A DNA stretch of 53,324 nucleotides from an uncultured Bacilli bacterium (GCA_934101445.1 CAKORQ010000001.1:1-53324), one strand, 5' to 3'. Shown: positions 6,473 to 40,500, counted from the stretch's first letter. Made by a program: numbers and translations. The notes: generated by a model not told the origin, from the letters alone.

Positions 6473-8719
6473 CTATTCTTCCACGGCACACGGCTCAACA
6501 TATCTGATGTAGGTATAACCTGCACCATCATTTTTATTTGCCTCATTCAGTGTCTTATACTTCTTTCCGTTATGGGTAAATGTAGGCATATTCCCCACAT
6601 AGGAAGAACCCCCGGCACCGGAGTTTCCATACACACCATAGTTGCCTGCAAACCACCCTGCCCCGCCCGGTGAATAGGTATAGCTCGTATTGGAACTGGA
6701 AGGACCAAATGATGCGCCAAAATTTGTATAATCCGATGTCCCTACTGCTGTCTGTCTTCCGCCCAGGTTGCCTCCGGAGCCATCCTGTCCTCTTTCACCG
6801 CCTCCGGAGCCTCCTTCATTTATAGACAAAGCTTTGTACGGCTGTCCCATAGCTGTTCCATCCGTTGTTAATCCAGTTATACCTCCACCGCCTCCGCCAC
6901 CTGCAATCAAAAGAATTTTATTCCTCTGCTTATAGGTATTGGAAGCATTATTACCGCCAGACAAGGTAATATTTTCCGTTGCAATATAGGTTGCTCCGCC
7001 ACTTCCTGCTCCATAATTTCTCGAAGTTCCACTCCCAAAGTTATTTCCATAGGCTCCGCCATTCTGTCCGGATGAAGTTCCATTTGCTTTGCCACCGTTA
7101 TAGACATACAGATAGGTGTCTTTCTTACATTTTCTGTATGCCTTAACATGACCGCCTTTCCCGCCTTTGGCCGTTACGCTTTTGGAGGTACCATCAATCG
7201 TGATGTTTCCGGCAGCGTCACCACCTGCCCCGCCCCAGCATTCAAACTCATAGATACCGTCTGCCGGAACATGAAATGCCTGATAAGTGACATTTGCATT
7301 CAGAAAATCATACACCGTATCAATAAACACAGGTACAAGTTCCTCATCCTTCGTAAACTTATACTTTTCACCCGGAACATAGATTGTATCAGAGGAAAGG
7401 CTCGTCTTCCATCCACAGAAGGACTTATCCTCACCATATTCATATACATTATCCGGCATGGTCACATCATCAGATAAGGTCTTCCCGTTGTTATAATATA
7501 GGTCTGCCTTCTGGGTCGTTTCCTTCTTCCCGTCAATCAGGGCTGCATCTCCGGAATCCATTGAAATGGTGATCTGCTTTTTGAATACGGCATACAGTTT
7601 TACGGCTGACTCGCTGTTTATCACATAATCTGCAAGCACACCGCCGTCTGCATTTGCATCCGACTTCCATCCCACAAAAGTATATCCTGCCTTTGATACG
7701 GAAGGTGCTGATGCAACCGCGTCATTAGAAAGGGCAGCTGTCTGGGTAATGGCGTTATCCGTATCAATCTGATAAGTGACCTGGATTCCGGTTGCATAAA
7801 TCACATGCTGACCAAGATAGATAAATTTAATCTCCTGTGTATCTGCATTATCATAGCAGTAATACATGGTATTCTTATCATAAGTGCCTAACTTCTGGTA
7901 ATCGGTAACACTCATGATCTTCTGGACAAGATTACCCGTGGAGGAAAGCTGCTTTGTGACTTCATCAGCCACATTTTTTATCTTTTTATTGGTTTCCGTC
8001 ATATCCGTATCATGTTTCTTCTCAAGCTCTGTTAAATCTGTCTGCGCCTGTGTCAGTTCCAGAATGGTATTTCTTGCAGCAAACACAGCTGTTCCGTCCA
8101 GAACCGAATCTCCCACCTTTGTGATCTGACCGTATCCCTTTGGTTCAAGCACATCCGTTGTCCCGGCCTGTGTACAGTAAAGGGTACACCATCCCGGAGC
8201 AGAGGCTGATGAAGTTGTATCGCCTACGGCATACTTCTTTTCCCGTTCCAGTCCGGCTGCCCCGCCGCCCCCGCTGCCTCCCGGCGTGATAGTCTTAAAG
8301 GTATTCACAAGATCACTTATCTGGACTGCCGTGACCTTAAACTTTGCCAGTTCCAGGTCATAAGCCGTGTTGTTATAATTTACATTCACATCGGAGGCAA
8401 GATTCGACAGTTCCTTTGCCGTTTCCGTAAGAATCTGAATCGGCTCATCAGCATTGGATAAGTCCATGTGAAGATATATCCTGCCGAGTTTTGTTTCCCC
8501 CGTATCTGCCAGCTGGACAGCCACCTCTGTTTCATACAGTTCAAAGAACCGGCCTTTAATCATGCCGAACCCCTGACTGATATGAAGCACATTGCTTCTT
8601 GCAAAGGAAACCTCACAGCCTTTGAACACCCCTGCTCCCGGCAGAACCGTCTGATATATGATTGCATCATCCTGCGGTGTCACATTCCCGCCCTTGAAAG
8701 TCTTTAGTGCGATTGCCAT
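6473..8719 (-). CDS. Tail fibre / receptor-binding protein with two Listeria-Bacteroides-type repeats and a C-terminal glycine-rich domain
   Basis: 748 aa located after the Dit and Gp37-like genes. GYTFVGWKSD...LYAVF and SFCGWKTS repeats. The C-terminal ~270 aa are full of GGxGG / GGGGGGG / GAGGSSY runs. Confidence 0.8.
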   Translation of the reverse strand: MAIALKTFKGGNVTPQDDAIIYQTVLPGAGVFKGCEVSFARSNVLHISQGFGMIKGRFFELYETEVAVQLADTGETKLGRIYLHMDLSNADEPIQILTETAKELSNLASDVNVNYNNTAYDLELAKFKVTAVQISDLVNTFKTITPGGSGGGGAAGLEREKKYAVGDTTSSASAPGWCTLYCTQAGTTDVLEPKGYGQITKVGDSVLDGTAVFAARNTILELTQAQTDLTELEKKHDTDMTETNKKIKNVADEVTKQLSSTGNLVQKIMSVTDYQKLGTYDKNTMYYCYDNADTQEIKFIYLGQHVIYATGIQVTYQIDTDNAITQTAALSNDAVASAPSVSKAGYTFVGWKSDANADGGVLADYVINSESAVKLYAVFKKQITISMDSGDAALIDGKKETTQKADLYYNNGKTLSDDVTMPDNVYEYGEDKSFCGWKTSLSSDTIYVPGEKYKFTKDEELVPVFIDTVYDFLNANVTYQAFHVPADGIYEFECWGGAGGDAAGNITIDGTSKSVTAKGGKGGHVKAYRKCKKDTYLYVYNGGKANGTSSGQNGGAYGNNFGSGTSRNYGAGSGGATYIATENITLSGGNNASNTYKQRNKILLIAGGGGGGGITGLTTDGTAMGQPYKALSINEGGSGGGERGQDGSGGNLGGRQTAVGTSDYTNFGASFGPSSSNTSYTYSPGGAGWFAGNYGVYGNSGAGGSSYVGNMPTFTHNGKKYKTLNEANKNDGAGYTYIRYVEPCAVEE

Positions 8720-8724
8720 TTTCC

Positions 8725-9801
8725 TTACTCCCTCCGTAGTATTTTGGTAAGGTCTAACCTTACCGTTCCAAAAATCAGCTTGGTGTTTATCCCCCGTTCT
8801 TTTCCTGTAAGGATGGATGTATAAACTGCTTTATCAGACAGAATCCTTACTACCTGACCAAAGGACATCTCATCCGGTCTTACCAGGCTGTCCCCGTTTA
8901 ACATAGTCAGTTCAATCAGGTTACTGTAGGAAAGACTGGCGAAACGGTTATGTGCCTCGTTCATTGCTGCCGATTCAAAGGACGAATTCTCATCATGTTC
9001 GACTGCCTTCATCTCACACACCACGGGCGTTATCCTGTCCCGGTCAAAGGTGTCATACCCAAGGTCAGATGCATGAAGAAAATACACCCTTTTATCTGCA
9101 TAATCCGAAGCAGCATCATAAAGCACCAGCTTATTCACATCTGCAGATACCGACTTGATGGTCAGTGATTTCTTTATGATGTTCGGTAAATCGGCTTCTA
9201 TGGTAACCACTCCCGTTCCTGCCCTCCCTACGCAGACCCGGATGGCTCTGTTCTGGATATCCAGTCCTGCATCAACTACAATGCTGTATTTGGAAAGAGC
9301 CGGAATAATAATGGAATCCATCAGATTTACGATATTAAAATGTCCGCCTGCCTGTGCAGGTGTGATATGAAAATACCAGTCCGTGGTAGAAGATGCCGTT
9401 TCCACGGACAGCCCCGGGATGTTCTGCTCTGCGTCCTCATTCTCTATAAACATTTCCGTAATCTTTCTGCAGATATAATCTTCCAGTGAACCCTTTCCCT
9501 GTTCACTGACATCAAATAAAATGTCCGTATCAAACAGTTCCATCAGCGGTTTATAGGATATCTGCATCAGATTCTTGGATTTGTCCGTTCCATAAGTGAT
9601 TTCAGTAATCACTCCGGCATACTCTTCCTTCCCTCTGGAGATACGGATATAGTCCTGCTTTGATATACCTTTCACCGGGAGAATGGTAATGCTGTTTTCA
9701 TCTCCTGAAAGATAGTCTTCCTTATAGGTGACAGAGTCAATATTGGTATTTCCGACCATACGGAATGCCGGAGTAAAGATTTCCACATTATACGGTTTCA
9801 T
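8725..9801 (-). CDS. Siphovirus Gp37-like baseplate/tail-tip protein
   Basis: Position between Dit and fibre; N-terminus MKPYNVEIFTPAFRMVG... is typical of ReqiPepy6 Gp37-like proteins (recognised by eye). Confidence 0.65.
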   Translation of the reverse strand: MKPYNVEIFTPAFRMVGNTNIDSVTYKEDYLSGDENSITILPVKGISKQDYIRISRGKEEYAGVITEITYGTDKSKNLMQISYKPLMELFDTDILFDVSEQGKGSLEDYICRKITEMFIENEDAEQNIPGLSVETASSTTDWYFHITPAQAGGHFNIVNLMDSIIIPALSKYSIVVDAGLDIQNRAIRVCVGRAGTGVVTIEADLPNIIKKSLTIKSVSADVNKLVLYDAASDYADKRVYFLHASDLGYDTFDRDRITPVVCEMKAVEHDENSSFESAAMNEAHNRFASLSYSNLIELTMLNGDSLVRPDEMSFGQVVRILSDKAVYTSILTGKERGINTKLIFGTVRLDLTKILRRE

Positions 9802-18207: not shown

Positions 18208-18978
18208 TTAGTGGGATAAAAGACTGAGTCTCTTATCCAAATCTGTGATACGGACTCCCGCTTTTTCCGGTACCGTTTCGTTTACTTTTGCAATAAAGCT
18301 ATCTTCCACAGCCTTCCGGCTGAAAAGAACATCTGTCGAAGGATACACGTTCCCCAGCTTTTCAGGTATTGCATCCTTGGGGTTTTCGCCTTCTGTAGCG
18401 TCTGCTGTCTTATCAGATACAGAACTATCCTCAAACAGGATTTCATCCACAAAACCTAACTCCTTCGCTTTCTTGGCATTCATCCATGTTTCGTTTGCCA
18501 TAAGTTCAGAAATCTTTTTATGGGACAGCTTTGACTTGGCAGCATAAGCATTGATAATGGATTCCTTCACCTCATCCAACACATGAATGGCCTGTTCCAT
18601 ATCCCGTGTATTTCCGATAGCCATCATCATGGGGTCATGAATCATAAGCATTCCCACCGGACTGATGGTTACCTGATCCCCTGCCATTGCAATCACGGAT
18701 GCGGCCGAAGCAGCAAGTCCATCAATTTTTACTGTTACATTGCCCTTGTAATCACGGAGCATGTTATAAATCTGTGCTGCTGCAAATACATCTCCTCCCG
18801 GTGAGTTAATCCATACGGCAATATCCCCACTTCCACTTTCCAGTTCTTCCCTGAACATCTGTGGTGTGGTCTCATCTCCCCACCAGGTTTCATCAGAAAT
18901 TTCTCCCGACAAAAAAAGCGTCCTGGGTTCTCCCGGTACGCTCTCATCTCTGATCCAGTTCCAAAACTTTCGTTTCAT
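18208..18978 (-). CDS. ClpP-type (S14) prohead maturation protease
   Basis: INSPGGDVFAAAQIYNMLRDYKGNVTVKIDGLAASAASVIAMAGD. Confidence 0.9.
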   Translation of the reverse strand: MKRKFWNWIRDESVPGEPRTLFLSGEISDETWWGDETTPQMFREELESGSGDIAVWINSPGGDVFAAAQIYNMLRDYKGNVTVKIDGLAASAASVIAMAGDQVTISPVGMLMIHDPMMMAIGNTRDMEQAIHVLDEVKESIINAYAAKSKLSHKKISELMANETWMNAKKAKELGFVDEILFEDSSVSDKTADATEGENPKDAIPEKLGNVYPSTDVLFSRKAVEDSFIAKVNETVPEKAGVRITDLDKRLSLLSH

Positions 18979-20270
18979 GACTTTCCTCGCTTTCTACTAT
19001 TTGGTTTTTCCTGCTGATTTTCTGCATCTGTATTTTTATCCGCAAATATGCCTGCATCTCTCAGTCTGCATAAAGCGCCATTCACCAGATACAGATTTCC
19101 ACCTTCCTCATCCGGGATGGGGTTCAAATCTTCCAGTTCCCGGACATCATTGGGTGACATGAATCCGTTCTGCAGTCCTATGGAATAACCTTCCATTCTG
19201 GATTTGTAATCTCCACGAAGAAGTCCATCCACATTCAGCTTCACAAAATACGTTCCTTTTTCTCCCGGTAAAAACAATGCCTTCTGCAGGGACTGTTCCC
19301 ATCGGATTACCCACGGATCAAGCGTATATTTTACAAATTCCAACGACTGCTGCTCAATGTTATTAAAGCTGCTCTTATCCAAATCTCCTATCATATGTGG
19401 GGGAATCCGATAAAGCCTTGCTATTTCATTTAGCTGAAACTTCCTTGTTTCCAGAAACTGTGCTTCTTCCGGTGGAATACCAATCTGCTGGTATTTCATA
19501 CCTTCTTCCAATACAGCAATCTTGTGGGCATTGTTGCTGCCACGGTACACCTCGTTCCATGACTCCCGTACCCTTGCAGGGTCTTTTAAGACTCCGGGAT
19601 GTTCCAGAACGCCACCAGGATTTGCTCCATTTGCAAAAAAGGAGGCTCCATATTCCTCACAGGCAAGCGTCATCCCCACAGCATTTTTTGCCATTGCAAT
19701 CGGAGAGAAACCTTTCAGTCCATTAAACCCCAGTGCCGGAATATGCAATACTTCCTCTGGCTTTAAGATGTAGTCCTTGGTTTCTTTTAAATAAGGATTC
19801 TCGTCACTCTGTCTGGAATAGGTGTAATACAGATTGCCACGTTCATCCCGGTCTACTTCCATACGATTAGGGAGCAGAGGATACAGGGCAATCACCCTTC
19901 CTGCTCCATCCCTTATAATCTGTGCATAGGCATTCCCCCAAATCAAAAGATGGCTCATCATGGTTTCACGAAACACAAAGGATGTCATCTCCGGATTGGG
20001 TTCATCATGCAGAATTCTATATAGGGGATGATCTGTTACCATCGTCTTGCCACCATTTTCATCATATTTATACACATGAAGCGGCAGTGAGGCTATTGCC
20101 TCAGACAGTATTCTCACACAGGCATACACGGCTGTGGTCTGCATGGCTGACCGTTCATTGACCGCTTTCCCGGAAGAAGTTCTGCCAAACAAAAAAGACG
20201 GTCCCCCGCCTACTGTATTCACAGGCTTATCCCTCGCCTGTGAAAATCCAAAGAATTCTCTGATCCCCAT
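18975..20270 (-). CDS. Portal protein, HK97 family
   Basis: 431 aa, between TerL and the protease; typical HPLYRILHDEPNPEMTS block. Confidence 0.93.
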   Translation of the reverse strand: MGIREFFGFSQARDKPVNTVGGGPSFLFGRTSSGKAVNERSAMQTTAVYACVRILSEAIASLPLHVYKYDENGGKTMVTDHPLYRILHDEPNPEMTSFVFRETMMSHLLIWGNAYAQIIRDGAGRVIALYPLLPNRMEVDRDERGNLYYTYSRQSDENPYLKETKDYILKPEEVLHIPALGFNGLKGFSPIAMAKNAVGMTLACEEYGASFFANGANPGGVLEHPGVLKDPARVRESWNEVYRGSNNAHKIAVLEEGMKYQQIGIPPEEAQFLETRKFQLNEIARLYRIPPHMIGDLDKSSFNNIEQQSLEFVKYTLDPWVIRWEQSLQKALFLPGEKGTYFVKLNVDGLLRGDYKSRMEGYSIGLQNGFMSPNDVRELEDLNPIPDEEGGNLYLVNGALCRLRDAGIFADKNTDAENQQEKPNSRKRGKS

Positions 20271-20366: not shown

Positions 20367-21968
20367 TTAAAAGACAAACAAACCTCTGGAGTCGTACACG
20401 CTTTCTGTGGAAACATTTTCGCACCGGATAGCACGGTCAAGTGCCATGATGGTTGCCACTGCTCCATCAATCTTCTCCGTGGATTTTTCCTTATCCGGTT
20501 TCACATTTCCCGCCGGGTCTGTCCGAACGAAAATATTATCCATATTCCAACGCAGTACTGGATGCCCTCCATGTGCAATCCGCTGTTCCAACGTCAGTTT
20601 CATCAATTCCTTCGTTGGTGGTGACATGGATGCAAAGCCCTGTCCAAAGGGAACTACCGTAAATCCCATACCTTCCAGATTCTGTACCATCTGGACTGCT
20701 CCCCACCTATCAAATGCTATTTCTTTTATCTGAAAACGCTCTCCCAGCTTTTCGATAAACTTTTCAATAAATCCATAATGCACCACGTTTCCTTCCGTAG
20801 TCATGATTTTCCCCTGTTTTTCCCACAAGTCATATGGGACATGATCCCTGCGAACCCTGAGCGAAAGGGTCTCTTCCGGTATCCAATAATATGGCAGTAC
20901 CTCATATTTCCCCTCTGCCTCTTCCGGTGGAAATACCAGTACAAAAGCGGTAAGGTCTGTAGTACTTGATAAATCCAGACCTCCATAGCAGATTCGTCCT
21001 TCCAATTCCCTCTCATCCACAGGAAAAGCACAGGCATCCCATTTAATCATAGGCATCCATCTAGTGGACTGTTTTACCCACTGATTCAGTCGGAGCTGCC
21101 GGAAAGAGTTTTCCTCGCTTGGGGTCTGCTTTGCAGATTCGCAGGCAGCTTTTACCTTATCCAGTCCAATCGTGATCCCAAGACTGGGATTCGCCTTTTC
21201 CCACACTTTAGGGTCTGTCCAGTCATCTTCTTCCGATGCTCCATAAATTACCGGATAAAAAGTAGCGTCTATCTTTCTGCCTTCGATGATATCCACTGCC
21301 TTCTGATGCAATTCATAACAAATGGAATTCGTATCATTTCCCGCTGTAGTTATAATAAAATGTAGTGGGTTTTTTCTTGCATCTGATGTTCCCTTAGTCA
21401 TCATGTCAAAAAACTTTCTGTCCTTTTGCACCCATAATTCATCAAAAATAAGAGCACTGACATTGATTCCCGATTTTCCGGCTACCTCAGCTGACAAGGC
21501 TTTATACGTGCTGTTGGTCGGAATATAATGAATGGTCTTTCTGCTTGGGCGGATATCGCACCTACTACTTAATGCCGGACAGAGACGCACCATATCACAG
21601 GCTACATCAAATACCAACGAACTCTGGTCACGATCTGCAGCACAGCCGTATACCTCTGCTCTCTGCTCCCCATCTGCACATAACATATATAATGCGATTG
21701 CCGCTGCAAGTTCCGACTTTCCACATTTTTTTGGAACTTCAATATAAACGGTAGTAAACTGTCTATACCCATCAGGCTTTAATATTCCAAATACATCCCG
21801 AATAATCTTTTCCTGCCAGTCGATTAATTCAAACGGCTTCTTATAAAATTCTCCTTTGGTATGCTTTAACTGCTCTATGAAAGAGACCACATAGTCTGCT
21901 TCCTCTTTATCATAATGGGAGGTTTTTGCCATGAACTTTGTCGGTGTATATTTTTTCAGTCTCCGCAA
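20367..21968 (-). CDS. terL: Terminase large subunit (Terminase_1 type)
   Basis: 533 aa. Walker A-like VPKKCGKSEL; C-terminal nuclease region. A TTG start at 21968 is preceded by GGAGAG; the alternative ATG at 21932 lacks an RBS. Confidence 0.93.
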   Translation of the reverse strand: MRRLKKYTPTKFMAKTSHYDKEEADYVVSFIEQLKHTKGEFYKKPFELIDWQEKIIRDVFGILKPDGYRQFTTVYIEVPKKCGKSELAAAIALYMLCADGEQRAEVYGCAADRDQSSLVFDVACDMVRLCPALSSRCDIRPSRKTIHYIPTNSTYKALSAEVAGKSGINVSALIFDELWVQKDRKFFDMMTKGTSDARKNPLHFIITTAGNDTNSICYELHQKAVDIIEGRKIDATFYPVIYGASEEDDWTDPKVWEKANPSLGITIGLDKVKAACESAKQTPSEENSFRQLRLNQWVKQSTRWMPMIKWDACAFPVDERELEGRICYGGLDLSSTTDLTAFVLVFPPEEAEGKYEVLPYYWIPEETLSLRVRRDHVPYDLWEKQGKIMTTEGNVVHYGFIEKFIEKLGERFQIKEIAFDRWGAVQMVQNLEGMGFTVVPFGQGFASMSPPTKELMKLTLEQRIAHGGHPVLRWNMDNIFVRTDPAGNVKPDKEKSTEKIDGAVATIMALDRAIRCENVSTESVYDSRGLFVF

Positions 21969-22027
21969 ATGACTCTCTCCTTTAACTCCACGAAAAAAGG
22001 ACTCTTAAGAGTCCTCCTTCTGTATAT

Positions 22028-22231
22028 TTACCTTTGCGTGTACCGATGAATGGCATTCAGAATCTGTTGCTGTTCCTCGGCATCCACTCCGATGCTGCAA
22101 AGAGCCTCTCTTGTCCCACAGTCGGGACAAATCTGCGTCTTTCCATCCACTCTTGAAAGTGCCGGAGCATCATGGTATCTCTGCCCACAAATGGGGCAGA
22201 GTCTAATATGTCCATTTTTTCTACTTTTCAT
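22028..22231 (-). CDS. Small zinc-ribbon protein
   Basis: CPICG...CPDCG motifs. The ATG at 22231 overlaps the GGCT stop by 11 nt. Confidence 0.5.
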   Translation of the reverse strand: MKSRKNGHIRLCPICGQRYHDAPALSRVDGKTQICPDCGTREALCSIGVDAEEQQQILNAIHRYTQR

Positions 22232-22691
22232 GGCATATCCTCCGGCTTTTTTCAATAGCATCGTACAAAATATTTTCATCAAACTGAAAAGTTTCATATC
22301 CTTCAAGGCAGGTATGGACATAAGATGGGCTTGGCATTCCTATCTGCCTGTCCTCATGCATGATGTATACATATACCTTTCGTTTCCTGACCTTTCCGGT
22401 CTTGATTCCGGTAATCGGCAGTATCATTTCTGCCTTATAATAAAAGACCGGACACCCTTCATATCGATCAAGGGCATGCTCATCTGCGTCCGTAGTTTCC
22501 CATACAGCAACTGGAACACAAGAACCTTCTTTTGGTTCTATAGTAAGGTAAGAACCTGTTTTGCTGCCCTTAAAAAGCAGTTCATAGTCTGGCACGACCG
22601 ATGTTCCAATAATTCTCGCCTGTGGGCAGCGTACCTTCATCTGCCTGATGTTTAGGTTGCTCCCATAAGCAATATAATATCTTTTCTGCAT
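22221..22691 (-). CDS. Gamma-glutamylcyclotransferase-like (GGCT/AIG2 fold) protein
   Basis: N-terminal YIAYGSNLNIRQM signature (YxAYGSNL). Confidence 0.8.
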   Translation of the reverse strand: MQKRYYIAYGSNLNIRQMKVRCPQARIIGTSVVPDYELLFKGSKTGSYLTIEPKEGSCVPVAVWETTDADEHALDRYEGCPVFYYKAEMILPITGIKTGKVRKRKVYVYIMHEDRQIGMPSPSYVHTCLEGYETFQFDENILYDAIEKSRRICHEK

Positions 22692-22773
22692 TCTGCATCC
22701 ATCCTTTCCGAAGGAAATACCCTTCTACCACCTTAAGACCGCCAAGGCGGTCAATTGATAAAGTGGCAGGAGG

Positions 22774-23718
22774 CTATTCCCTTGCTGTGCGGAATGCCGT
22801 ATCTCCTGTAAGTCGTTTCGTAAGGATGTCCCTTGCTGTTTTGAATTCATCCCCGATAAATCCGAGTCGGAGGAGCCATGTTCTCATTGCGTATTTTGGA
22901 TTTTCATTCTGCTGCGGTTTAGGACTTGCCGTTCTTATTTCCTTTGCCATCTGGCTGAGTGCGAGGCAAAGCTGAATGTATGCCTTAAGCTGTCCGGCAT
23001 GAAGTCCGTTTTTCTTTCCCTCTGCCGGAGCGTCAAATTGAAAAAGTCTGAACTCGATGGTTCCCTTTGTAAAAGTAGCATGGTAATTCAGCATATGGTA
23101 CCGGCTGTCATTGTAATGCTGTGACCTGCCGTAGTTGCAATTCTGACTTCCATACCAGATGTCTGCCAATGCTGACATGGTCTTTGGCTTTTTCTTGTTA
23201 AGATTCTCAAGAAATCTTGGATCAACTGTCCTGCAATATCTGTTCATTCTTCCTCTGTCAAGGTTTAGGGCATCTGCTATAAGGCTTTCGTGGCTTGCCA
23301 TAATGTTTGCAAGGTTTCTCATGGTCTGTGGTGTATGCCCTTTGGCTCCAATGTGAATGTGTACCCCGCAGCCCCTTGTTGCATCACTCTTTGCCCCTGC
23401 GTGTCTTAACTGCCTTACAAGTTCCTGTAAAATTTCTATGTCGGTGTAGGTAAGGATTGGTGTCACCAGCTCACATTTTTCGCTATCGCATCCGGCAATG
23501 CTTACATCCTTTTGGAATTTCCATTCCCTGCCCTGTGCATCCCATGCTGACCAAGTGTAATACCCGTTCCTTCCAGCTGTATTACCATATCTTTCTGTTC
23601 CGAAGAATCCTGCTGCCAGTTTTGCAGCCTTTTCTCTGGTAATGCTGTTCATTTCAATCTCAACCCCAATGGTCTGCTTTTTCATTTCTTCAATCTGTCT
23701 TGTAGTTTTCTCGTTCAT
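22774..23718 (-). CDS. Amidoligase_2-type (glutamine synthetase/GCS2-like) putative amidoligase
   Basis: IGVEIEMNS, CELVTPIL and GCGVHIHIG motifs. AAGGAG RBS 9 nt upstream of the ATG at 23718. The C-terminal module is shared with the 24238..24921 protein. Confidence 0.8.
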   Translation of the reverse strand: MNEKTTRQIEEMKKQTIGVEIEMNSITREKAAKLAAGFFGTERYGNTAGRNGYYTWSAWDAQGREWKFQKDVSIAGCDSEKCELVTPILTYTDIEILQELVRQLRHAGAKSDATRGCGVHIHIGAKGHTPQTMRNLANIMASHESLIADALNLDRGRMNRYCRTVDPRFLENLNKKKPKTMSALADIWYGSQNCNYGRSQHYNDSRYHMLNYHATFTKGTIEFRLFQFDAPAEGKKNGLHAGQLKAYIQLCLALSQMAKEIRTASPKPQQNENPKYAMRTWLLRLGFIGDEFKTARDILTKRLTGDTAFRTARE

Positions 23719-23842
23719 GGTATGTACTCCTTTTTGGTTGTTTTCCTTTCGGTAGTACATATATCACTCTAAAGCGCACTTATTGGAATACCGCTACTGG
23801 ACAAAGATACACAGCTTTTATTGTGTATCTTTTACCAGAAAA

Positions 23843-24238
23843 TCATTTTTCCCCATCTGTGCAGACATTTTTCTCAGAAACCAGTTCTGCTACAATCTTG
23901 GCATATCGTTCCTGCTCACTTCCCTCACAGGCGGACATTGCTTTTGTAAAGAATTCCAGCGCTTCTTTCCGGTTGTCCCACTGCTTTTCCTCTCCATAGC
24001 ATTTCACTATGACGGTATCCAGCTTCTTACAGGAGTCTTCTCCATAAACAACCCCAAGGCTTACATGATTATCCCACCTTACATGAATAGTTCCTGTATC
24101 ATCCACATCCTTGACCGTTCCTCTGGTTCCCGGCTCAATTTCCCGATAAGGGTCATCCATCGAAATAAGTTCCACCCTGTCTCCCGGTCGGTACTCATTT
24201 TTTATCTGCTCTACTATTTTTCTTGAAGGAAAGAACAT
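23843..24238 (-). CDS. DUF4314-domain protein
   Basis: PGDRVELISMDDPYREIEPGTRGTVKDVDDTGTIHVRWDN motif. TAATG overlap with the upstream gene. Confidence 0.7.
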   Translation of the reverse strand: MFFPSRKIVEQIKNEYRPGDRVELISMDDPYREIEPGTRGTVKDVDDTGTIHVRWDNHVSLGVVYGEDSCKKLDTVIVKCYGEEKQWDNRKEALEFFTKAMSACEGSEQERYAKIVAELVSEKNVCTDGEK

Positions 24239-24921
24239 TACTGCTTACCCCCTTTCCTTGTCCCTGCCTTAAATGCTGATGAACCACTCAATTTGGAAAG
24301 CAGTAGCTTTCTGTCGGCTTTGTACTCATCCCCGATAAATCCAAGTCTTAAAAGAAAGCATCGGAATGAGTATTTCTCATTTTCGTTTTCTTTCGGTTTG
24401 GCTGTAATTCTTTTCTGTTTCATTGTCATTTCACAGATTGCTGCAATAAACTTCGTGTAGGTCATTGTTTCTTCCGGTGTGGTCTTTGAAAACCAAGGGA
24501 ATGAAATGGAATCCTCATTCATTTCAAATCGCAAATCTGCAATTCCAAGGGCATCCTTTATCAGATTGCCCTTTGCCTCAAGCAGGCTTGTAAGATTTTC
24601 CACATTAACCTTGGTAAATGGAATGGTAACTGTAAGTTCCACCAAATCCTCCGTTTCTGTTTCCTCTGTGTTTCTGTTTTCTTCCCATTCTGCAGGAGTG
24701 ATTCCCGTTGCCATAACGCAGGCATCAATGATTGGTGCAACCTCATCAAGGTCATCGAAATCTCCGAATTCAAGTTCTCCATTTCTGCCTACTGTGTAAT
24801 TTCCAATCTCATATGTGCAGGATGGAACTCCAAGGTATCTTGCCTTCCCTCCTATTTCCTTTTCAATGGCTGTAACCATTGCTTTCCGGCTTTCGCCTTT
24901 CACATTAAAATGTAGTACCAT
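24238..24921 (-). CDS. Hypothetical protein ending in the ..FLLRLGFIGDEYK.. module (commonly travels with amidoligase in mobile elements)
   Basis: AGGGAGG RBS 8 nt upstream of the ATG at 24921 (MVLHFNVKGESRKAMV...). The C-terminal ~50 aa align with the amidoligase C-terminus. Confidence 0.6.
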   Translation of the reverse strand: MVLHFNVKGESRKAMVTAIEKEIGGKARYLGVPSCTYEIGNYTVGRNGELEFGDFDDLDEVAPIIDACVMATGITPAEWEENRNTEETETEDLVELTVTIPFTKVNVENLTSLLEAKGNLIKDALGIADLRFEMNEDSISFPWFSKTTPEETMTYTKFIAAICEMTMKQKRITAKPKENENEKYSFRCFLLRLGFIGDEYKADRKLLLSKLSGSSAFKAGTRKGGKQ

Positions 24922-24989
24922 GCTATGTACCTCCCTTTCTTTTGGTATGTACATATATCACTCGTACTGCATAAAATAGCAAGCTAATT

Positions 24990-26834
24990 TTATGTTATTT
25001 CTGCATAATATCTGATGCCGGAAAGCACAAATAACACATTGGGAAGAGCTACTCCATTTCCCCACATTTTATATTCTGCAGAGTCACTATGGGGATTCTG
25101 CAACCACTTCCTTATCTGTGCATCCGTTTTGGCTTTTACCGTATTTCCCACTGCTTTTGCGTAGACAGCAAAAATCTCTCTCCACCTTACAATTTCTGTC
25201 TCTGTTGGTTCCGGGATTGCAAGTCCATCACACCACCAGTCCGGAAATCCCTGCAGCCTTGCACATTCCGTAGGGGTTAGCCTGCGTACAATATAGTCCA
25301 TTTCTGTTTCGTCATTCACAATCGGAGGGTCCTTATAATCGGTAGCCACTAAGGTATTCGCACATTCCTCATTTACTTCCGTGAAAAAGGATGCCTTGGA
25401 AGAAGAATACTTTGGCTGTGCCACTCCACTTGCTCCAGCTGCTACAAGTGTAGGTTCTACTTCTTTCTCTATCTGAAAGCTGAGTCTTGCTTCATACCCC
25501 TGACTCAGGGTCGGTCTTCCAATCCCATAGGACGGCTCCCCTACAAAGTTCTCTTCCGGGTTCTTCATCATCTGACTGGATGGTCCCTTGGGACCGTCAT
25601 TCGCAGACAGCGTTGCATGAATATCTGCAAATGCAACTGCGTGTTGCTCGGTGGCATTTAAGGTATACATTACATCGGATTCCTTATAACCATCTCCCTT
25701 ATGGGATGGTCTTGTGCCATTTCCTTCTATCACGGCTATTCCACCCTGGTTGCAGGTCGGATTCCCGCCATTGGCATCCAGGCATCTTGAGGTATCTGCT
25801 TCGTAAAATCCACTGTTCGGATTCTCTGATTTCATGGCATTGCTGTTTTTGGAACACACCCCGAAAGCTCTCGGCTGGAATAATGTCTGGTCATTATTGG
25901 TACTGAGTGTTGCCGACAGGTCCTCCTGTATTAAAGCTCCTTTTCCTCCACCCTTACATCCACACCGAATTTTTAATGTCTTCGGTGTCTGCAATACAAA
26001 CGGCTGATTATTTCCACCTGTACCATAGGTAGACGAAACCGTCTGTGCAACCGAAAGTGGTCCCCGGTATCTCGTATCCTGTGAATGGTTCTCAAACATT
26101 ATGCCGTCTGCTTCGCCTGTTTCTCCAATGCTTTCTGCAACACGACAGGCAGTACTTTGCCACGACTTGAAGCCCTGCGCAGAATACCCAGACAGGCCTT
26201 CTGACTCAAATAATATTTTTCCGGCACTCCATCCATCAAAATCTGCGACAAGGTAGATTCGTTGTCTTCTCTGGGGAACACCCCAATACTGAGCATCGAA
26301 GAGTCTCCATGCGACACTGAAACTGTCTCCCATGATGCGTCCTGCATTTTCCCATTTTGAAGGTTTAGGAACAGACACCTGCTCTTCTTTGACTTTGCAG
26401 ATTTCAGTAAGAACTGCCTTGAAGTCCTCTCCCTTGTTGGAAGAGAATGTTCCGGGGACGTTTTCCCAGACAATGTATCTTGGGTATTTTCCATTGGTAG
26501 CCTCCCTCATCTCTTTAATAATTCTGATTGCTTCATAAAAAAGACTGGAACGATTACCATCCAGTCCCTCCCTTTTCCCTGCCACGCTCATGTCCTGACA
26601 GGGACTTCCAAAAGTAATAATATTTACAGGCTCCAGTTCCGAACCCTTAAGTGTGGAAATATCCCCATAATGCTTCATGTCCGGAAACCTTACTGTAGTA
26701 ACTCTTACTGGGAACGGCTCAATCTCCGACGCCCATAAGGGTGTGATACCGGACAAAGCCCCTCCCAATGGAAAACCCCCGGAACCGTCAAAAAGGCTGC
26801 CGAGGGTTAAACATTCCTTATTCTGTTGTCCCAT
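24990..26834 (-). CDS. DNA (cytosine-5)-methyltransferase with an unusually long variable region
   Basis: Motif I FDGSGGF, IV GSPCQDMS, VI ENVPG, VIII QRRQRIYLV, IX RRLTPTECARLQGFP, X GNGVALP. About 320 aa lie between motifs VIII and IX. GGAGG is 6 nt before the ATG at 26834; the ORF-track start at 26840 abuts the RBS. Confidence 0.93.
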   Translation of the reverse strand: MGQQNKECLTLGSLFDGSGGFPLGGALSGITPLWASEIEPFPVRVTTVRFPDMKHYGDISTLKGSELEPVNIITFGSPCQDMSVAGKREGLDGNRSSLFYEAIRIIKEMREATNGKYPRYIVWENVPGTFSSNKGEDFKAVLTEICKVKEEQVSVPKPSKWENAGRIMGDSFSVAWRLFDAQYWGVPQRRQRIYLVADFDGWSAGKILFESEGLSGYSAQGFKSWQSTACRVAESIGETGEADGIMFENHSQDTRYRGPLSVAQTVSSTYGTGGNNQPFVLQTPKTLKIRCGCKGGGKGALIQEDLSATLSTNNDQTLFQPRAFGVCSKNSNAMKSENPNSGFYEADTSRCLDANGGNPTCNQGGIAVIEGNGTRPSHKGDGYKESDVMYTLNATEQHAVAFADIHATLSANDGPKGPSSQMMKNPEENFVGEPSYGIGRPTLSQGYEARLSFQIEKEVEPTLVAAGASGVAQPKYSSSKASFFTEVNEECANTLVATDYKDPPIVNDETEMDYIVRRLTPTECARLQGFPDWWCDGLAIPEPTETEIVRWREIFAVYAKAVGNTVKAKTDAQIRKWLQNPHSDSAEYKMWGNGVALPNVLFVLSGIRYYAEIT

Positions 26835-28095
26835 CCGCATCCTCCAATTCTTTCACAGCATCTTCATAGCTGATCTTTACTCCATCTCGGATGACATACA
26901 CATCCTTACTATCCTGATTTCTGAACTCCAGATATCTCTTTACTGCTACATCCACAAATTTTGGTTCCAGTTCAATTCCATAGCAGGTTCTGTCAATCTG
27001 CTCACAGGCAATCAGTGTGGATGCAGAACCAAGGAATCCATCCAGTACGACTCCATTGGCCTGTGTACTCTGCTGTATCAAATAAGCAATCAGTGGAACC
27101 GGTTTACTGGATGGATGACCAAATCCATCCTCCTTGGAATTTTTAATTCCATCGAATTCAAAAATGGATTTCTGCTTCTGGTCACCATACCAGATATGAC
27201 GCCCATCCTTGCGCCAGCCCCAGAAAATAGGTTCTCCATTGAATTTCCAGTCCGTTCTCATAAGCGGTGCCCTTGGCTTTTTCCACATCAGCCCTGCACC
27301 CAGTTTAAATCCAGCATCCTCGTAAGCATCAATAAACACCCTTGTCTTCATGGTGGCATAAAATACATAAATAGAAGCATCTACCGCCATGTGATCATGG
27401 AACTGGGTAAATGCTTTCATTAAAAATTCATAGCCGTCCTTATCATTCAGATCATCGTTTGCAATTTTCCCAGATGCATTTTCAAGTGCTACAAAGTACG
27501 GCGGGTCGGTGCAGACCAGATTTGCCTTAACCTCCCCCAGAAGGGAATCATAGGTATCTGCTATCGTAGAATCCCCGCAGATAACCCGGTGTCTTCCAAG
27601 ATGCCAGATATCTCCGGTCTTAGAAAAGCACGGCTTTGCCAGTTCTTCCTCCACATCAAATTCATCCTCTTTTGCCTCTGTAGCATCCGGTGCAAAAAGA
27701 TCTGCAATCTCCTGTTCCTCAAACCCCGTAAGCGATACATCGAAGTCATATCCTTGCAGGGCTTCCAATTCAACTTTCAAAAGAGCATCATCCCAGCCTG
27801 CATCCATTGCCATACGGTTGTCTGCCAGAATATAGGCTTTCTTCTGAGCCTCTGTCAGATGATCCACATACACACAGGGAACTTTGCTTAGTCCCTCTTC
27901 CTTAGCAGCCATCAGTCTACCGTGTCCGGCTATCACGTTATACTCTCGGTCAATCAGTATTGGATTGATAAATCCAAACTCTCTCATAGAAGACCGCAGC
28001 TTTAACACCTGTTCCTGTGAATGAGTTCTCGCATTATTCTGATATGGTATCAATTTCGAGGTATCTACAACTTCGAATTCTGTTGTTGTAATCAT
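26818..28095 (-). CDS. ParB-like nuclease domain fused to an N6/N4 DNA methyltransferase (orphan phage MTase)
   Basis: N-terminal IPYQNNARTHS...ILIDREYNVIAGHGR ParB-N motifs; TDPPYF catalytic motif; LDGFLGSASTLIA AdoMet motif. Confidence 0.9.
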   Translation of the reverse strand: MITTTEFEVVDTSKLIPYQNNARTHSQEQVLKLRSSMREFGFINPILIDREYNVIAGHGRLMAAKEEGLSKVPCVYVDHLTEAQKKAYILADNRMAMDAGWDDALLKVELEALQGYDFDVSLTGFEEQEIADLFAPDATEAKEDEFDVEEELAKPCFSKTGDIWHLGRHRVICGDSTIADTYDSLLGEVKANLVCTDPPYFVALENASGKIANDDLNDKDGYEFLMKAFTQFHDHMAVDASIYVFYATMKTRVFIDAYEDAGFKLGAGLMWKKPRAPLMRTDWKFNGEPIFWGWRKDGRHIWYGDQKQKSIFEFDGIKNSKEDGFGHPSSKPVPLIAYLIQQSTQANGVVLDGFLGSASTLIACEQIDRTCYGIELEPKFVDVAVKRYLEFRNQDSKDVYVIRDGVKISYEDAVKELEDADGTTE

Positions 28096-28259
28096 CCTTC
28101 AATCCCCCGCTTTTTCAGTAGTCTATCTAATCCCCGGTTTGCACCTTCCACATCTCCAGCATTGATCTGTCCACGGATTGTTCTGTATTCCTGAATAGTA
28201 AGATATCTCTTCATTCCTTCCAGCCTTCCCAGCACATATGCCAAATTCATATCAACCAT
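28092..28259 (-). CDS. Small hypothetical protein (55 aa)
   Basis: AGGGAGG RBS 7 nt upstream of the ATG at 28259. ATGA overlap with the downstream MTase. Confidence 0.45.
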   Translation of the reverse strand: MVDMNLAYVLGRLEGMKRYLTIQEYRTIRGQINAGDVEGANRGLDRLLKKRGIEG

Positions 28260-28818
28260 TTCGTTTCCTCCCTGTCCTAAGAAGCTGTTCCATAATATCC
28301 TCCTGTGGATTTGCTCCGGTATATTCACTGCTGCAGTTTTCCTTCACAACCTGAAAAATCGAATACCAGATAGCGGATGCCTGTTTCTGGTATTGTTGCG
28401 ATATCGTAATATATGGACTGGAACAGGCAGCTCCCGTTGTCGGATGCTTTGCTAAGAATCCATACTGTGTAATGGCTCTCTCGCATTGAATCCATCTGGA
28501 TACGGCCACGGCATACTGTTCAATCTGCTCTTTGCTGATCAGCTTTTCACAGCCCCTCTCCTTAAGCCACATCCATGTCTTTTTAAAGATAGCTGCTGCC
28601 TCGAATTCCTCTCCATCTTTCTGTGTTTCCTTTAAATACTCACTGGGTTCAGGCATCTCTACTCCAGTTAAATCCGCTGTGTCAGAGAAATCCACTACCG
28701 TGAGTTTTCTGCCACCCGGATTTCCCATTGCTATTTTATCTGCTAAAGCCTTTGGCTTTCTGCCTGATCCTGTGCGTTGTCCTCCACGGACAGTCCCATC
28801 TTTCGCCAAGTGCATCAC
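28252..28818 (-). CDS. terS: Terminase small subunit, P27 family
   Basis: GGQRTGSGRKPK...AAAIFKKTWMWLKERG...ISKEQIEQYA..VSRWIQCE pattern; located downstream of HNH. Confidence 0.85.
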   Translation of the reverse strand: MMHLAKDGTVRGGQRTGSGRKPKALADKIAMGNPGGRKLTVVDFSDTADLTGVEMPEPSEYLKETQKDGEEFEAAAIFKKTWMWLKERGCEKLISKEQIEQYAVAVSRWIQCERAITQYGFLAKHPTTGAACSSPYITISQQYQKQASAIWYSIFQVVKENCSSEYTGANPQEDIMEQLLRTGRKRNG

Positions 28819-29423: not shown

Positions 29424-29879
29424 CTATGGCATTCTATGGCAAACCATAGCAACTTTTAAATTAATGGGATTTTCCGGTATTTTTATTCTTGCTATTGCCT
29501 TGTTATGCCATCTCTGAACCGTTGTTATATCCGCACACATCTTATCTCCGATTCTGGACCAGGACAGGTTGTGAATGTAACGGTACTTCAATATCATCTG
29601 GTACTCCGGCTTTTCTACCTGACTGATGATTTCCCGTATCTGTTCTTTGAGTTCCAAAAGCAGTTTCACCTCATTCAGTATTTTTTCTTCCATCATGGAC
29701 ATCTTTTCTATTGTCTTAATGTAAGGAGCGTCCTTATTCTTTGTAGCATTATAATGCTCTTCAAATCCAGGAGACGAAATCGTCTGTGCCATAATACGTA
29801 GTTCTTCCAGTTCAATGGTGTCAGATTTGATTCGCTGGTCTAAGAGATATGATTGTCCCAAATATTCCTTTACCGTCAT
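29424..29879 (-). CDS. ArpU/RinA-like late transcriptional regulator (sigma-70 region-4-like HTH)
   Basis: C-terminal PEYQMILKYRYIHNLSWSRIGDKMCADITTVQRWHNKAIARI. Confidence 0.7.
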   Translation of the reverse strand: MTVKEYLGQSYLLDQRIKSDTIELEELRIMAQTISSPGFEEHYNATKNKDAPYIKTIEKMSMMEEKILNEVKLLLELKEQIREIISQVEKPEYQMILKYRYIHNLSWSRIGDKMCADITTVQRWHNKAIARIKIPENPINLKVAMVCHRMP

Positions 29880-34249: not shown

Positions 34250-34516
34250 TTACCCCTCCTCGCTTAATGCGATAATATTAAAAAGTAAATCCAGCATCAG
34301 TTCTTTGGCGGGGATATTGGAATCAAACTGTAATGCTCTGGTTCCATCCGGACGAATTAACATTGCTGCTACTCCAGAACAATGATCAGGAACCTCTATG
34401 GTAATATGAGTATTCCATCTGCCCTTTTCTGTCTTCTGCTGATACTCCGGTCTGGAAACCAGGACTTCTTCCCAAATCTGCTGCATGGTTACTTTTTCGT
34501 TTCTTCCTTTTTCCAT
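34250..34516 (-). CDS. Hypothetical protein (88 aa)
   Basis: ORF in the operon; overlaps the upstream gene's stop. Confidence 0.45.
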   Translation of the reverse strand: MEKGRNEKVTMQQIWEEVLVSRPEYQQKTEKGRWNTHITIEVPDHCSGVAAMLIRPDGTRALQFDSNIPAKELMLDLLFNIIALSEEG

Positions 34517-35061
34517 AATGAAATCTCCTTGTCAGTAAAATATCTGATTGTCATGTTTTTTCGCTCTGCATATGCGATTTCATTCTCCATTCCCTTGGAA
34601 TGCGCATCCCCAAATACCCACAGTTCTGCACATTTAGATAAAATTGCAATTCCCATAAACAAAGCAAGATCACGTTCCGTTTCCTCAGACATAAATTGAG
34701 GAAAAAGTAAATGCGGAGCTATAGGGATTGCTCCATGATTCACTGCATATCTGCTATACTGCTTGGCTTTCTTTATATTTCCTGCAATATCCCCACTAAA
34801 GGGAGAACAAATATACACCATTGGTCTAAATCTTTTCTGCTCCCGGTCTATGTTGGCAAACGCCTGGTATGGTACTACATCCGGATATCCTTCCTGATTT
34901 TTATAACCTATCCCATCAGACTCACCTCTTCCACTTTTTTGATAGGGATACGGATTTATCCCTTCACTATCCAATGGACATGGATTTATGAATTGGGCGG
35001 AGTTTTCTTTACTTTTTTCACTGTGGTTGGATTTCTTCCTTTTTATATGAAAAATTTGCAA
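34489..35061 (-). CDS. DUF4406 (nucleoside 2-deoxyribosyltransferase-like fold) protein; start uncertain
   Basis: VYICSPFSGD...IPIAPHLLFPQ...CAELWVFGD.HSKGMENEI motif set. The ORF-track start is a TTG with a weak RBS. The first ATG is at MVYICSP. Confidence 0.65.
   Translation of the reverse strand: MQIFHIKRKKSNHSEKSKENSAQFINPCPLDSEGINPYPYQKSGRGESDGIGYKNQEGYPDVVPYQAFANIDREQKRFRPMVYICSPFSGDIAGNIKKAKQYSRYAVNHGAIPIAPHLLFPQFMSEETERDLALFMGIAILSKCAELWVFGDAHSKGMENEIAYAERKNMTIRYFTDKEISLWKKEETKK
34963..35003. repeat. Left arm of a 41-bp imperfect inverted repeat (TTCACTATCCAATGGACA - 12 nt - TTGGGCGGAGT)
   Basis: Its reverse complement recurs at 35216..35256, with 18/18 and 11/11 identical blocks separated by a 12-nt spacer. 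Confidence 0.85.
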
Positions 35062-39600: not shown

Positions 39601-40155
39601 CTACTTATACTCTCTCAGTTTCTTTTCAAGTTCACTCACAACTGCGTCTTTACGATCTCTAAGGGTTCTTCTAGGAATCCCCAGTTCCTCTGCAACACTC
39701 CTCTGAGAATCACCGTTTGCTATCATCTGGCAAATGCGAAGTTTTTCAGAAGTAAGTTCTCCCAACACATTATACAGTGCATCTATTACAACACTGTATG
39801 CCACCAGTTCTTCCGGATTATCTCCCGCTGACTTCTGATCAAAGCCACTCTCAACCAAAACCTCATAAGAAGTTTCTAACTCTGCTCTGGCAGCTTTATC
39901 ACGCTCATCTTTTCTTGACCAGTTATTAAAAATCCTGTTCATAAAGTCAGCTTCTTCCTTGGTAGCTGCTTCGAAAATCGCATAATAATGTCTCATTCTT
40001 CCCGGCAGAGCAATACGGGCTACAGGTACATCGTTGCTCTTGTAATGCTTAATCGTCTCTTCATCCCCATCCTCAATGGGTACAAAGTATGGATTTGCAT
40101 AACTGAGCATTGCTTCGTTGGCGGTTACATTAGAATCTTTTTCCTTTTTTGTCAT
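39601..40155 (-). CDS. Sigma-70-family-like regulator (region-4 HTH)
   Basis: C-terminal LTSEKLRICQMIANGDSQRSVAEELGIPRRTLRDRKDAVV. GGAAAGGA RBS before the ATG at 40155. Confidence 0.75.
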   Translation of the reverse strand: MTKKEKDSNVTANEAMLSYANPYFVPIEDGDEETIKHYKSNDVPVARIALPGRMRHYYAIFEAATKEEADFMNRIFNNWSRKDERDKAARAELETSYEVLVESGFDQKSAGDNPEELVAYSVVIDALYNVLGELTSEKLRICQMIANGDSQRSVAEELGIPRRTLRDRKDAVVSELEKKLREYK

Positions 40156-40156
40156 A

Positions 40157-40435: not shown

Positions 40436-40500
40436 TATTTATCTTGTGCTTATGCATTAAGTGGGACTTAATGCTTGATATAAATTTTTTTAATTTTTTC

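Follow-up and report, generated by a model that had tools for sequence, protein, structure and literature searches.

Two accessory units, one with a predicted ligase–cyclotransferase pair, between the DNA methylases and TerL of a Bacillota prophage

We analyzed five small genes in a 53,324-nt stretch of DNA from an uncultured Bacilli bacterium (GCA_934101445.1, CAKORQ010000001.1:1-53324), referred to here as the window. The prophage in it is a temperate siphophage, and the genome around it belongs to the Bacillota. In gene order, the five genes encode a 227-aa protein (the partner), a DUF4314 protein, an amidoligase of the Amidoligase_2 family, a GGCT/AIG2-like gamma-glutamyl cyclotransferase and a Zn-ribbon mini-protein. 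We read these genes as two separate accessory units, which occupy a position of variable content flanked by the DNA methylases and TerL. The first, partner and DUF4314, is the constant part of the position and the more widespread; the second, amidoligase and GGCT, is exchangeable, and the Zn-ribbon gene is a lineage-restricted addition to it. The explanation that best accounts for the data, to which we assign a probability of roughly 55%, is that the two units share a sequence element, that the first would combine a catalytically dead amidoligase paralog with DUF4314, and that the second would combine an active ligase with the cyclotransferase in a transient gamma-glutamylation. This departs from an earlier sequence-only reading of the window, which had taken the five genes for a single cassette built around a writer-eraser pair.

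Gene content and distribution of the two units

All five genes proposed earlier exist; they are intact open reading frames (ORFs) on the minus strand, spanning positions 22028-24921. TerS (28252-28818) lies on one side and TerL (20367-21968) on the other, which places the genes inside the packaging module, in agreement with the sequence-only reading. The motifs quoted in that reading (IGVEIEMNS, CELVTPIL and GCGVHIHIG for the amidoligase, YIAYGSNL for the GGCT-like protein) are all present, and its family assignments hold up in searches with profile hidden Markov models, each score being well above the curated cut-off. The amidoligase (22774-23718, 314 aa) matches PF12224 with an E-value of 5.5e-54 and 184.1 bits (cut-off 22), over profile positions 2-244 of 245. 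The GGCT-like protein (22221-22691, 156 aa) matches GGACT, PF06094, at E 1.3e-11 and 45.5 bits (cut-off 22.8), as well as phrog_2520 at 4.7e-49. For the DUF4314 protein (23843-24238, 131 aa), the match to PF14192 has an E-value of 1.9e-29 and 101.8 bits (cut-off 27); the domain occupies residues 6-73 and is followed by a C-terminal extension, and phrog_2431, phrog_3782 and phrog_34775 are matched too. The Zn-ribbon mini-protein (22028-22231, 67 aa), with the pattern CPxCG...CPDCGTRE, matches phrog_2945 at 2.2e-21; its Pfam matches are to generic zinc ribbons only, and its four cysteines are conserved. A search of NCBIfam gave nothing informative. DUF4314 had been described as a recurrent component of polyvalent-protein neighborhoods. 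The polyvalent-protein paper, however, mentions neither DUF4314 nor amidoligase, and the term 'DUF4314' is absent from the searchable literature. DUF4314 is found by itself, as a small gene, on conjugative plasmids of staphylococci; in Staphylococcus aureus p3020.C01b it encodes 74 aa (6007-6231), among small hypothetical genes and with no amidoligase nearby.

The stop codon of the partner gene (24238-24921) and the start codon of the DUF4314 gene share one base (TAATG), and in relatives this junction is -1 or -4 nt. The end of the GGCT gene and the Zn-ribbon gene overlap by 11 nt. From these junctions, both pairs are translationally coupled. Gaps of 124 nt upstream of the amidoligase gene and of 82 nt between the amidoligase and GGCT genes separate the others. 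The partner and amidoligase genes start at 24921 and 23718, respectively, where a Shine–Dalgarno sequence is present and kept in relatives. In-frame ATGs further upstream, at 24954 and 23760, fall inside a conserved element described below, in the context ATATATG; the end coordinate of 24954 given earlier for the region corresponds to the first of these and is replaced by 24921. The longest possible ORFs are 238 aa for the partner and 328 aa for the amidoligase, and gene callers that favor the longest ORF over-extend both.

To define the distribution of these genes, we assembled related loci from IMG/VR, 80 retrieved with the partner and 77 new ones retrieved with the amidoligase (80 returned, 3 overlapping), and classed their ORFs by phmmer. 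Gene order in the relatives is fixed: HNH - TerS - ParB-methylase - [C5 methylase] - partner - DUF4314 - [amidoligase - GGCT - Zn-ribbon] - TerL - portal, with TerS shifted to just before TerL in a minority of loci. Among partner-centered loci (45-89% identity) with at least 2.5 kb of downstream sequence, DUF4314 follows the partner in 65/67, an amidoligase is present in 28/67 and none is found in 39/67. When loci were centered on the amidoligase (83-95% identity), those with at least 2.5 kb upstream had the partner in 63/64 cases and DUF4314 in 61/64, and those with at least 1 kb downstream had GGCT in 73/73 and the Zn-ribbon gene in 72/73. Thus, the linkage of amidoligase and GGCT suggested from the single sequence is found in every close relative with enough downstream sequence. 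In loci from Bacillota genomes, GGCT follows the amidoligase in most, and the Zn-ribbon gene comes after GGCT in only 4/36. These co-occurrence counts indicate that the strict unit is amidoligase plus GGCT, that the Zn-ribbon gene is lineage-restricted, and that partner plus DUF4314 is a separate, more widespread unit.

Individual phages illustrate the same modularity. Ruminococcus phage NatCom_2329 has the order DUF4314 - amidoligase - GGCT - Zn-ribbon - Abi_C, without the partner, and Streptococcus phage Javan630 has MetK - methylase - partner - DUF5049 - DUF7678 - TerL. Hence an obligate five-gene system is ruled out by the distribution (partner and DUF4314 alone, enzymes alone, Zn-ribbon gene mostly absent), and the single cassette proposed earlier comes apart into two units. 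In NatCom_2329, the Abi_C (abortive infection C-terminus) protein is encoded at 8088-8849 of the retrieved stretch, with the Zn-ribbon gene on one side and TerL on the other, so defense-type genes too gather in the space from the methylases to TerL. Some genomes have the order amidoligase-GGCT-partner, or two amidoligase-like genes flanking GGCT, showing that the paralog can lie on either side of the enzyme pair. Both families are abundant, with at least 8000 clusters at 90% identity for the amidoligase and 2752 clusters at 50% identity for the partner. Among 57 GenBank records matching the partner, 29 have a full-length partner, and about 28, NatCom_2329 among them, match only via the tail of an amidoligase.

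The ligase–cyclotransferase pair and the partner

The amidoligase has the intact catalytic motifs of a carboxylate-amine ligase of the glutamine synthetase (GS) and gamma-glutamylcysteine synthetase (gamma-GCS) type, and is predicted to be active. Residues E20, E22, E83, H120, H122, E222 and R224 are invariant in 39 homologs and in 27-30 locus-derived sequences; judging from the fold of GS and glutamate-cysteine ligase, they would bind metal and ATP. We modeled the protein with AlphaFold2 (AF2) from a shallow alignment of database homologs (predicted local distance difference test score, pLDDT, 73.8; predicted template modeling score, pTM, 0.76). The top Foldseek match of this model is the gamma-GCS domain of GshF (3ln7; E 2e-3, probability 0.97), followed by GS-like enzymes (5dm3, 8oow), gamma-glutamylmethylamide synthetase (9qur) and E. 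coli gamma-GCS (2d32). Every structural neighbor of significant probability makes a gamma-glutamyl amide. PafA and Dop are not among the top 50 structural matches. At the sequence level, neither the amidoligase itself nor a profile built on it had any match in the PDB.

The GGCT-like protein aligns to human GGCT (2pn7, 2i5t; E 1.5e-3). Its YGSNL corresponds to human residues 22-26 and its E78 to the human catalytic residue E98, and both YGSNL and the catalytic glutamate are kept in 28 homologs. In enzymes of the GS/gamma-GCS type, ATP activates the gamma-carboxylate of glutamate, which is passed to an amine; enzymes of the GGCT fold cleave a gamma-glutamyl bond by cyclizing the glutamyl group to 5-oxoproline. 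Given that the structural neighbors of the ligase make gamma-glutamyl amides and the GGCT fold cleaves them, transient gamma-glutamylation is the simplest coherent mechanism. On the basis of these models, the likeliest chemistry would be the transient gamma-glutamylation of an amine, with removal of the group as 5-oxoproline.

The conservation of the ligase bears on what the acceptor might be. No other protein of the region is as well conserved as the amidoligase, whose median identity to the window is 82% across relatives, above TerL (75.5%) and the portal (66%). For GGCT the value is 66%, for the Zn-ribbon protein 61% and for the partner 51%. Such conservation of the ligase points to an acceptor that does not vary, which could be a small molecule or a macromolecular group conserved in all hosts, and argues against a fast-evolving host protein as the target.

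The sequence-only reading treated the 227-aa protein as a partner protein and one of several that might carry an adduct. Our comparisons indicate that it is neither an unrelated protein nor an obvious substrate: it is a collinear paralog of the amidoligase, and one predicted to be catalytically dead. No Pfam family matches it at E ≤0.01, and at E ≤10 the sole match is a chance one to PBP_GOBP. Yet its last 64 residues are 44% identical to the amidoligase (BLASTP, E 3e-17), and the two proteins fall in one PHROG (phrog_2443, 'amidoligase enzyme'; 7e-54 for the partner). A profile of 67 diverse partner homologs from a representative search was compared by hhalign with a profile of 30 amidoligases, and the two aligned collinearly over their full length (probability 99.8, E 3e-28). 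With the shared C-terminal tail cut from both profiles, the match was retained at probability 83 and E 9e-6. In this alignment, the catalytic positions of the amidoligase have been replaced or lost. Strand 1, GVEIEM, corresponds to LHFNVKG (ExE to F-N-V-K/T); the CELVTP strand is missing; in place of GCGVHIHIG there is VELTVTIPF (HxH to T-x-T-I-P); and IEFRLF becomes ISFPWF (ExR to S/F-P-W). An amidoligase insert of about 55 residues is deleted as well, and the invariant columns of the 67 partner homologs include no conserved glutamate, aspartate or histidine.

Structural models are in line with this assignment. The AF2 model of the partner has a pLDDT of 92.4, and its order of strands and helices is collinear with that of the amidoligase model. 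The closest structures, glutamine synthetase among PDB entries and phage amidoligases among those of BFVD, match it at E-values of 0.02-0.25 that are not significant by themselves; a PDB search with the partner sequence profile gave chance matches only. The partner is thus predicted to keep the fold and the shared C-terminal two-helix tail without the chemistry. By eye, this tail resembles a DNA-binding motif of the SAP/HeH type, a reading we dropped when isolated tails matched no Pfam profile, SAP, HeH and Rho_N included, at E ≤10. In current annotation, GenBank names the partner family 'virulence-related protein' (Streptococcus Javan phages, Erysipelothrix phi1605, Gardnerella AB1), and PHROG-based annotation labels both the partner and the amidoligase 'amidoligase enzyme'.

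By analogy, the most likely role of the partner is that of a non-catalytic binder or scaffold. It may be a prozyme-like subunit where the enzyme is present. The partner often occurs without the enzyme, so it must also function by itself, and in such phages it is probably a stand-alone binder.

A conserved upstream element and the prophage around it

Each unit is preceded by a promoter-like element on the minus strand. Element 1 (24949-24982) is sited in the gap between the stop codon of the C5 methylase gene and the start of the partner gene. It comprises a -35-like TTGCTA (24982-24977), a 17-nt spacer, GATATA(T) and the core ACGAGTGATATATGTAC. Element 2 (23755-23788) heads the amidoligase unit, with a -35-like TTCCAA (23788-23783), a 17-nt spacer, GATATA(T) and the core TAGAGTGATATATGTAC. 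A search with TAGAGTGATATATGTAC, located at 23755-23771, recovered a two-mismatch copy at 24949-24965; the 53 kb contain no match beyond these 2, whereas 0.1 would be expected. Among relatives, the consensus reads cTTG(C/A)TA - N17 - GATATATGTAC(A/T)ACC(A/G)AAA ... GGAGG ... ATG. Practically every related locus retains the element in front of the partner gene, and it is better conserved than the proteins encoded downstream of it.

Copies of the element are spread across the phylum. The exact 19-mer TTYAGAGTGATATATGTAC was found in at least 120 Bacillota genome stretches, compared with about 9 expected by chance (as estimated from sequence length). Hosts include Lachnospiraceae, Oscillospiraceae, Clostridium, Bacillaceae, Carnobacteriaceae, Negativicutes, Tissierellia, Dehalobacter and Acetobacterium. 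Nearly all copies lie before the partner gene or after the DUF4314 gene, in the arrangement MTase-MOTIF-partner-DUF4314-MOTIF-cargo-TerL. The cargo that follows DUF4314 under the 19-mer is amidoligase-GGCT, DUF7698-DUF7678, Nmad4 or an unnamed 107-aa family; in other cases, there is none. From these data, we infer that the region is a variable accessory position with a constant first unit and an exchangeable second one, each under its own signal.

The 17-nt spacing to a TTGACA-like hexamer suggests that the element is a promoter. We also considered a structured RNA leader, such as a hairpin that hides the Shine–Dalgarno sequence. RNAalifold predicted zero consensus pairs for 22 diverse leaders, and Rfam had no match at E ≤1; we therefore rejected the leader and take the element for a signal that acts as DNA. 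The element could be a dedicated promoter or operator, a binding site for the ParB-methylase, or a patch of homology for the swapping of units. Candidate readers of the element could be the phage-encoded sigma-like protein (39601-40212) or the phrog_36 transcription regulator (29424-29879). A bolder proposal would join these points: the 19-mer would mark a 'cargo slot', serving as promoter/operator and as the homology patch by which amidoligase-GGCT, DUF7698-DUF7678 and Nmad4 are swapped across Bacillota phages, and the ligase and cyclotransferase in the slot, guided by the dead paralog and DUF4314, would transiently gamma-glutamylate an invariant amine of host or phage. We consider this combination unlikely. 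If true, phages would have a covalent modification system of a kind not seen before, with a part in the conflict between phage and host or in chemistry linked to DNA.

At the other end of the region, between the Zn-ribbon gene and TerL, is a terminator-like hairpin on the minus strand (21993-22016; GAGGACTC-TTAA-GAGTCCTT followed by a T-run). It would halt transcription just before TerL unless read through. A comparable hairpin and T-run follow the Zn-ribbon gene in 18/78 distinct related loci, with stems of different sequence.

The prophage itself is temperate, of the HNH/HK97 type, and resembles Ca. Heliusvirales; in GenBank, the phages closest to it are those of gut Clostridia that are classed as Ca. 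Heliusvirales, together with Terrisporobacter phage TPDSL_ph1. Almost all of its genes are on the minus strand. Two adjacent large serine recombinases (524 and 503 aa; 188-3258) mark its left end. To their right in coordinate order are an amidase endolysin, tail genes, the tape-measure protein and the major tail protein, and then, between the tail genes and the portal (18975-20270), the major capsid protein and a ClpP-type protease; TerL follows the portal. Directly upstream of the partner-DUF4314 unit is the C5 DNA methylase gene (24990-26840, minus strand), and upstream of that a ParB-N6/N4 DNA methylase gene (26818-28095, minus strand). By synteny, DNA methylases (one or two) are always the direct upstream neighbor of this unit in the relatives as well. 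TerS is followed by an HNH endonuclease. Replication genes (helicases, primase, exonuclease, a Gp2.5-like single-stranded DNA-binding protein and DNA polymerase I) lie to the right of the phrog_36 regulator. Within the replication module, at 34489-35061, is a nucleoside 2-deoxyribosyltransferase-like gene (phrog_355), the sole other nucleotide-chemistry gene that we noticed. To the right of the replication genes is a low-GC stretch (32-39%; 40500-53130) with genes for a PLD-like nuclease, a DNA methylase, a PD-(D/E)XK nuclease, DUF6508 and a WapI-like immunity protein, closed by a ComM/Mg-chelatase-like host gene (51940-53130). This stretch may be a defense island or the junction of prophage and host.

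Proposed mechanism, alternatives and related systems

The gene content, the family memberships, the catalytic motifs kept or lost, the modular distribution and the cis element are direct observations; for the preferred explanation, we infer a substrate, an order of reactions and a biological role as follows. At the expense of ATP, the ligase would turn a carboxylate (most likely the gamma-carboxylate of glutamate) into an acyl phosphate and would couple it to a primary amine of an acceptor that is itself highly conserved. The cyclotransferase would then strip the gamma-glutamyl group as 5-oxoproline and regenerate the amine; with such removal, the modification would be transient. It might act as a protective or delivery group, or as a reversible mark. 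The dead paralog would be a non-catalytic binder or scaffold, working beside the enzyme or apart from it.

Several observations weigh against this scheme. Structural matches of the amidoligase are weak (E 2e-3 at best, TM 0.35-0.43, on a model with a pLDDT of 73.8), as are those of the partner (E 0.02 or worse). The carboxylate activated by Amidoligase_2 enzymes might not be that of glutamate, and a ligase and a cyclotransferase expressed together could amount to a futile cycle. A scaffold role for the partner fits poorly with the occurrence of each paralog alone in many phages. With regard to the promoter, the -10-like hexamer is non-canonical, and a generic sigma-70 scan did not flag the element.

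The sequence-only reading held that the five genes are one writer-eraser system. A peptide or gamma-glutamyl tag would be put on a target and taken off again, the target being the 227-aa protein itself or some protein of the virion or the host, and the purpose possibly anti-defense or host takeover. A co-transcribed ligase and cyclotransferase do fit this, and their linkage is strict; moreover, the closest relatives have all five genes together (partner 63/64, DUF4314 61/64, Zn-ribbon 72/73), the position holds Abi_C in NatCom_2329 and adjoins anti-restriction-type methylases, and the partner evolves fast (51% median identity), as in an arms race. However, the sequential use of a protective group fits the enzyme pair equally well, leaving writer and eraser as one of several readings of it. 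The partner is a homolog of the enzyme, neither a tag nor an evident substrate. Partner and DUF4314 occur without the enzymes in 39/67 loci, the enzymes also occur without the partner, and the Zn-ribbon gene is missing from most Bacillota versions. No small Pup-like tag gene is evident, PafA and Dop are outside the top 50 structural neighbors, and the conservation of the ligase speaks against a rapidly evolving protein target. As for anti-defense, direct support is lacking: PADLOC 2.0, a library of defense-system models that covers defense rather than anti-defense, gave zero matches for all five proteins at E ≤0.01. Taken as a whole, this explanation seems improbable to us. We rate as less probable again the idea that the unit works with the adjacent methylases in DNA or nucleotide modification, for example by assembling or cutting back a base modification that contains an amino acid, on progeny DNA that is yet to be packaged. 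It draws on the location of the unit, always directly downstream of one or two DNA methylases, on the additional presence of S-adenosylmethionine synthetase in Tn6164 and in Streptococcus phage Javan630, and on Nmad4 ('nucleotide modification associated domain 4'), which takes the same position elsewhere. Amidoligase and amidotransferase domains also co-occur with thymidine hypermodification clusters in viral metagenomes (PMC8989533). But base-activating enzymes did not turn up: among the larger ORFs of the window, as scanned against PHROGs and Pfam (small and several mid-sized ORFs were left unscanned), there was no enzyme generating 5-hydroxymethyldeoxyuridine or 5-hydroxymethylcytosine, no dUMP/dCMP hydroxymethylase, and no 5-HMUDK, aGPT-Pplase, glycosylase, TET/JBP or TGT. 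The unit is optional among phages with the same methylases, and gene order conserved in one phage lineage is weak evidence of function.

Two further explanations appear less likely than those just discussed. In one, the unit is a moron-like agent of lysogenic conversion that modifies an amine of the envelope, in the peptidoglycan stem peptide or teichoic acid, and blocks superinfection. Peptidoglycan does contain gamma-D-glutamyl-amine bonds, and a promoter-like element of its own together with a terminator-like hairpin gives the unit the architecture of a moron. A passage of PMC11318856, citing Iyer 2009, attributes a superinfection-blocking envelope role to the amidoligase of phiEco32. Against this, inspection of the five sequences by eye, with no predictor, revealed no evident signal peptide or membrane segment, and the unit sits in the late region, oriented like the packaging genes; we think such a role quite improbable. 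The least probable explanation, in our view, is metabolic rewiring, whereby glutamate and ATP are turned into 5-oxoproline via a gamma-glutamyl intermediate, shifting host pools of glutamate, ATP or polyamines. This net reaction follows from the chemistries of the two enzymes and is comparable to a truncated gamma-glutamyl cycle; the PHROG category of the cyclotransferase is 'auxiliary metabolic gene and host takeover', and the extreme conservation of the ligase would suit a small-molecule substrate. Yet a benefit to the phage is not evident, no transporter or other metabolic gene is linked, and both the dead paralog and DUF4314 are left unexplained.

Transient gamma-glutamylation, the chemistry we favor, has precedents in other systems. 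GshF, gamma-GCS and gamma-glutamylmethylamide synthetase, the best structural neighbors of the ligase, and human GGCT, to which the cyclotransferase active site corresponds, jointly make and break gamma-glutamyl amides. Compared with the solved ligases, the phage amidoligase is much smaller (314 aa) and has no detectable sequence similarity to them; it also has a family-specific insert (residues ~155-211) and the C-terminal two-helix tail. Gamma-glutamylation also serves as a protective group in butirosin biosynthesis (BtrJ/BtrG) and as a catabolic step for putrescine (PuuA/PuuD); in both, an ATP-dependent ligase puts the group on an amine that a second enzyme later sets free. Of these proteins, PuuA is GS-like, PuuD is a GATase-like hydrolase, and BtrG is a GGCT-fold cyclotransferase. 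By analogy, the phage pair may follow the same add-then-remove logic. Unlike the GS-like phage ligase, however, BtrJ is an ATP-grasp enzyme, and the phage unit has no linked enzymes for processing an intermediate. PafA and Dop of the Pup system are, like the proteins studied here, two GS/GCS-like ligase paralogs encoded close together, but Dop is an enzyme that keeps its catalytic residues, whereas the phage partner has evidently lost them. We rejected a Pup-like tagging system in view of the apparently dead paralog, the lack of a tag-like gene among the five ORFs and the absence of PafA/Dop from the top 50 structural matches. The prozyme of trypanosomatid AdoMetDC is another inactive paralog beside an active enzyme, and by this analogy a hetero-oligomer might be formed. 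Unlike prozymes, the phage partner is very often found without the enzyme.

Neighborhoods of Amidoligase_2 and AIG2/GGCT genes in Firmicutes prophages were reportedly predicted in 2009 by Iyer, Abhiman, Burroughs and Aravind in Mol Biosyst; the present locus has the same two families, the same adjacency and the same host phylum. It is a typical member of this known amidoligase-AIG2 kind, one of thousands of close copies. The same arrangement has been listed without analysis for C. difficile Tn6164, for C. clostridioforme LM41 prophages and for Terrisporobacter phage TPDSL_ph1. The statement that the system had not been characterized experimentally agrees with our survey, in which the searchable literature yielded no experimental work. 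In the same literature, we found no text on a dead second 'amidoligase', the two-unit structure, the shared 19-mer with its alternative cargos or the conservation of the ligase. These features are what is new here, with the second 'amidoligase' predicted to be dead and the cis element spread phylum-wide; the category of the locus is unchanged.

The enzyme pair was predicted in 2009 and has gone without a substrate ever since, although the family is very abundant in gut phages. Ca. Heliusvirales, which are part of the prophage lineage in which both the amidoligase and partner families lie, are among the most widespread phage groups of the human gut (PMC11283538). Our results narrow the experiments that are worth doing: one of the annotated 'amidoligases' is predicted to be dead, the presumably active pair is a self-contained two-gene unit, and the ligase is more conserved than the terminase. 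As a consequence, the question of the ligase and cyclotransferase can be separated from that of the partner and DUF4314. In addition, the conserved cis element provides a handy marker for finding alternative cargos.

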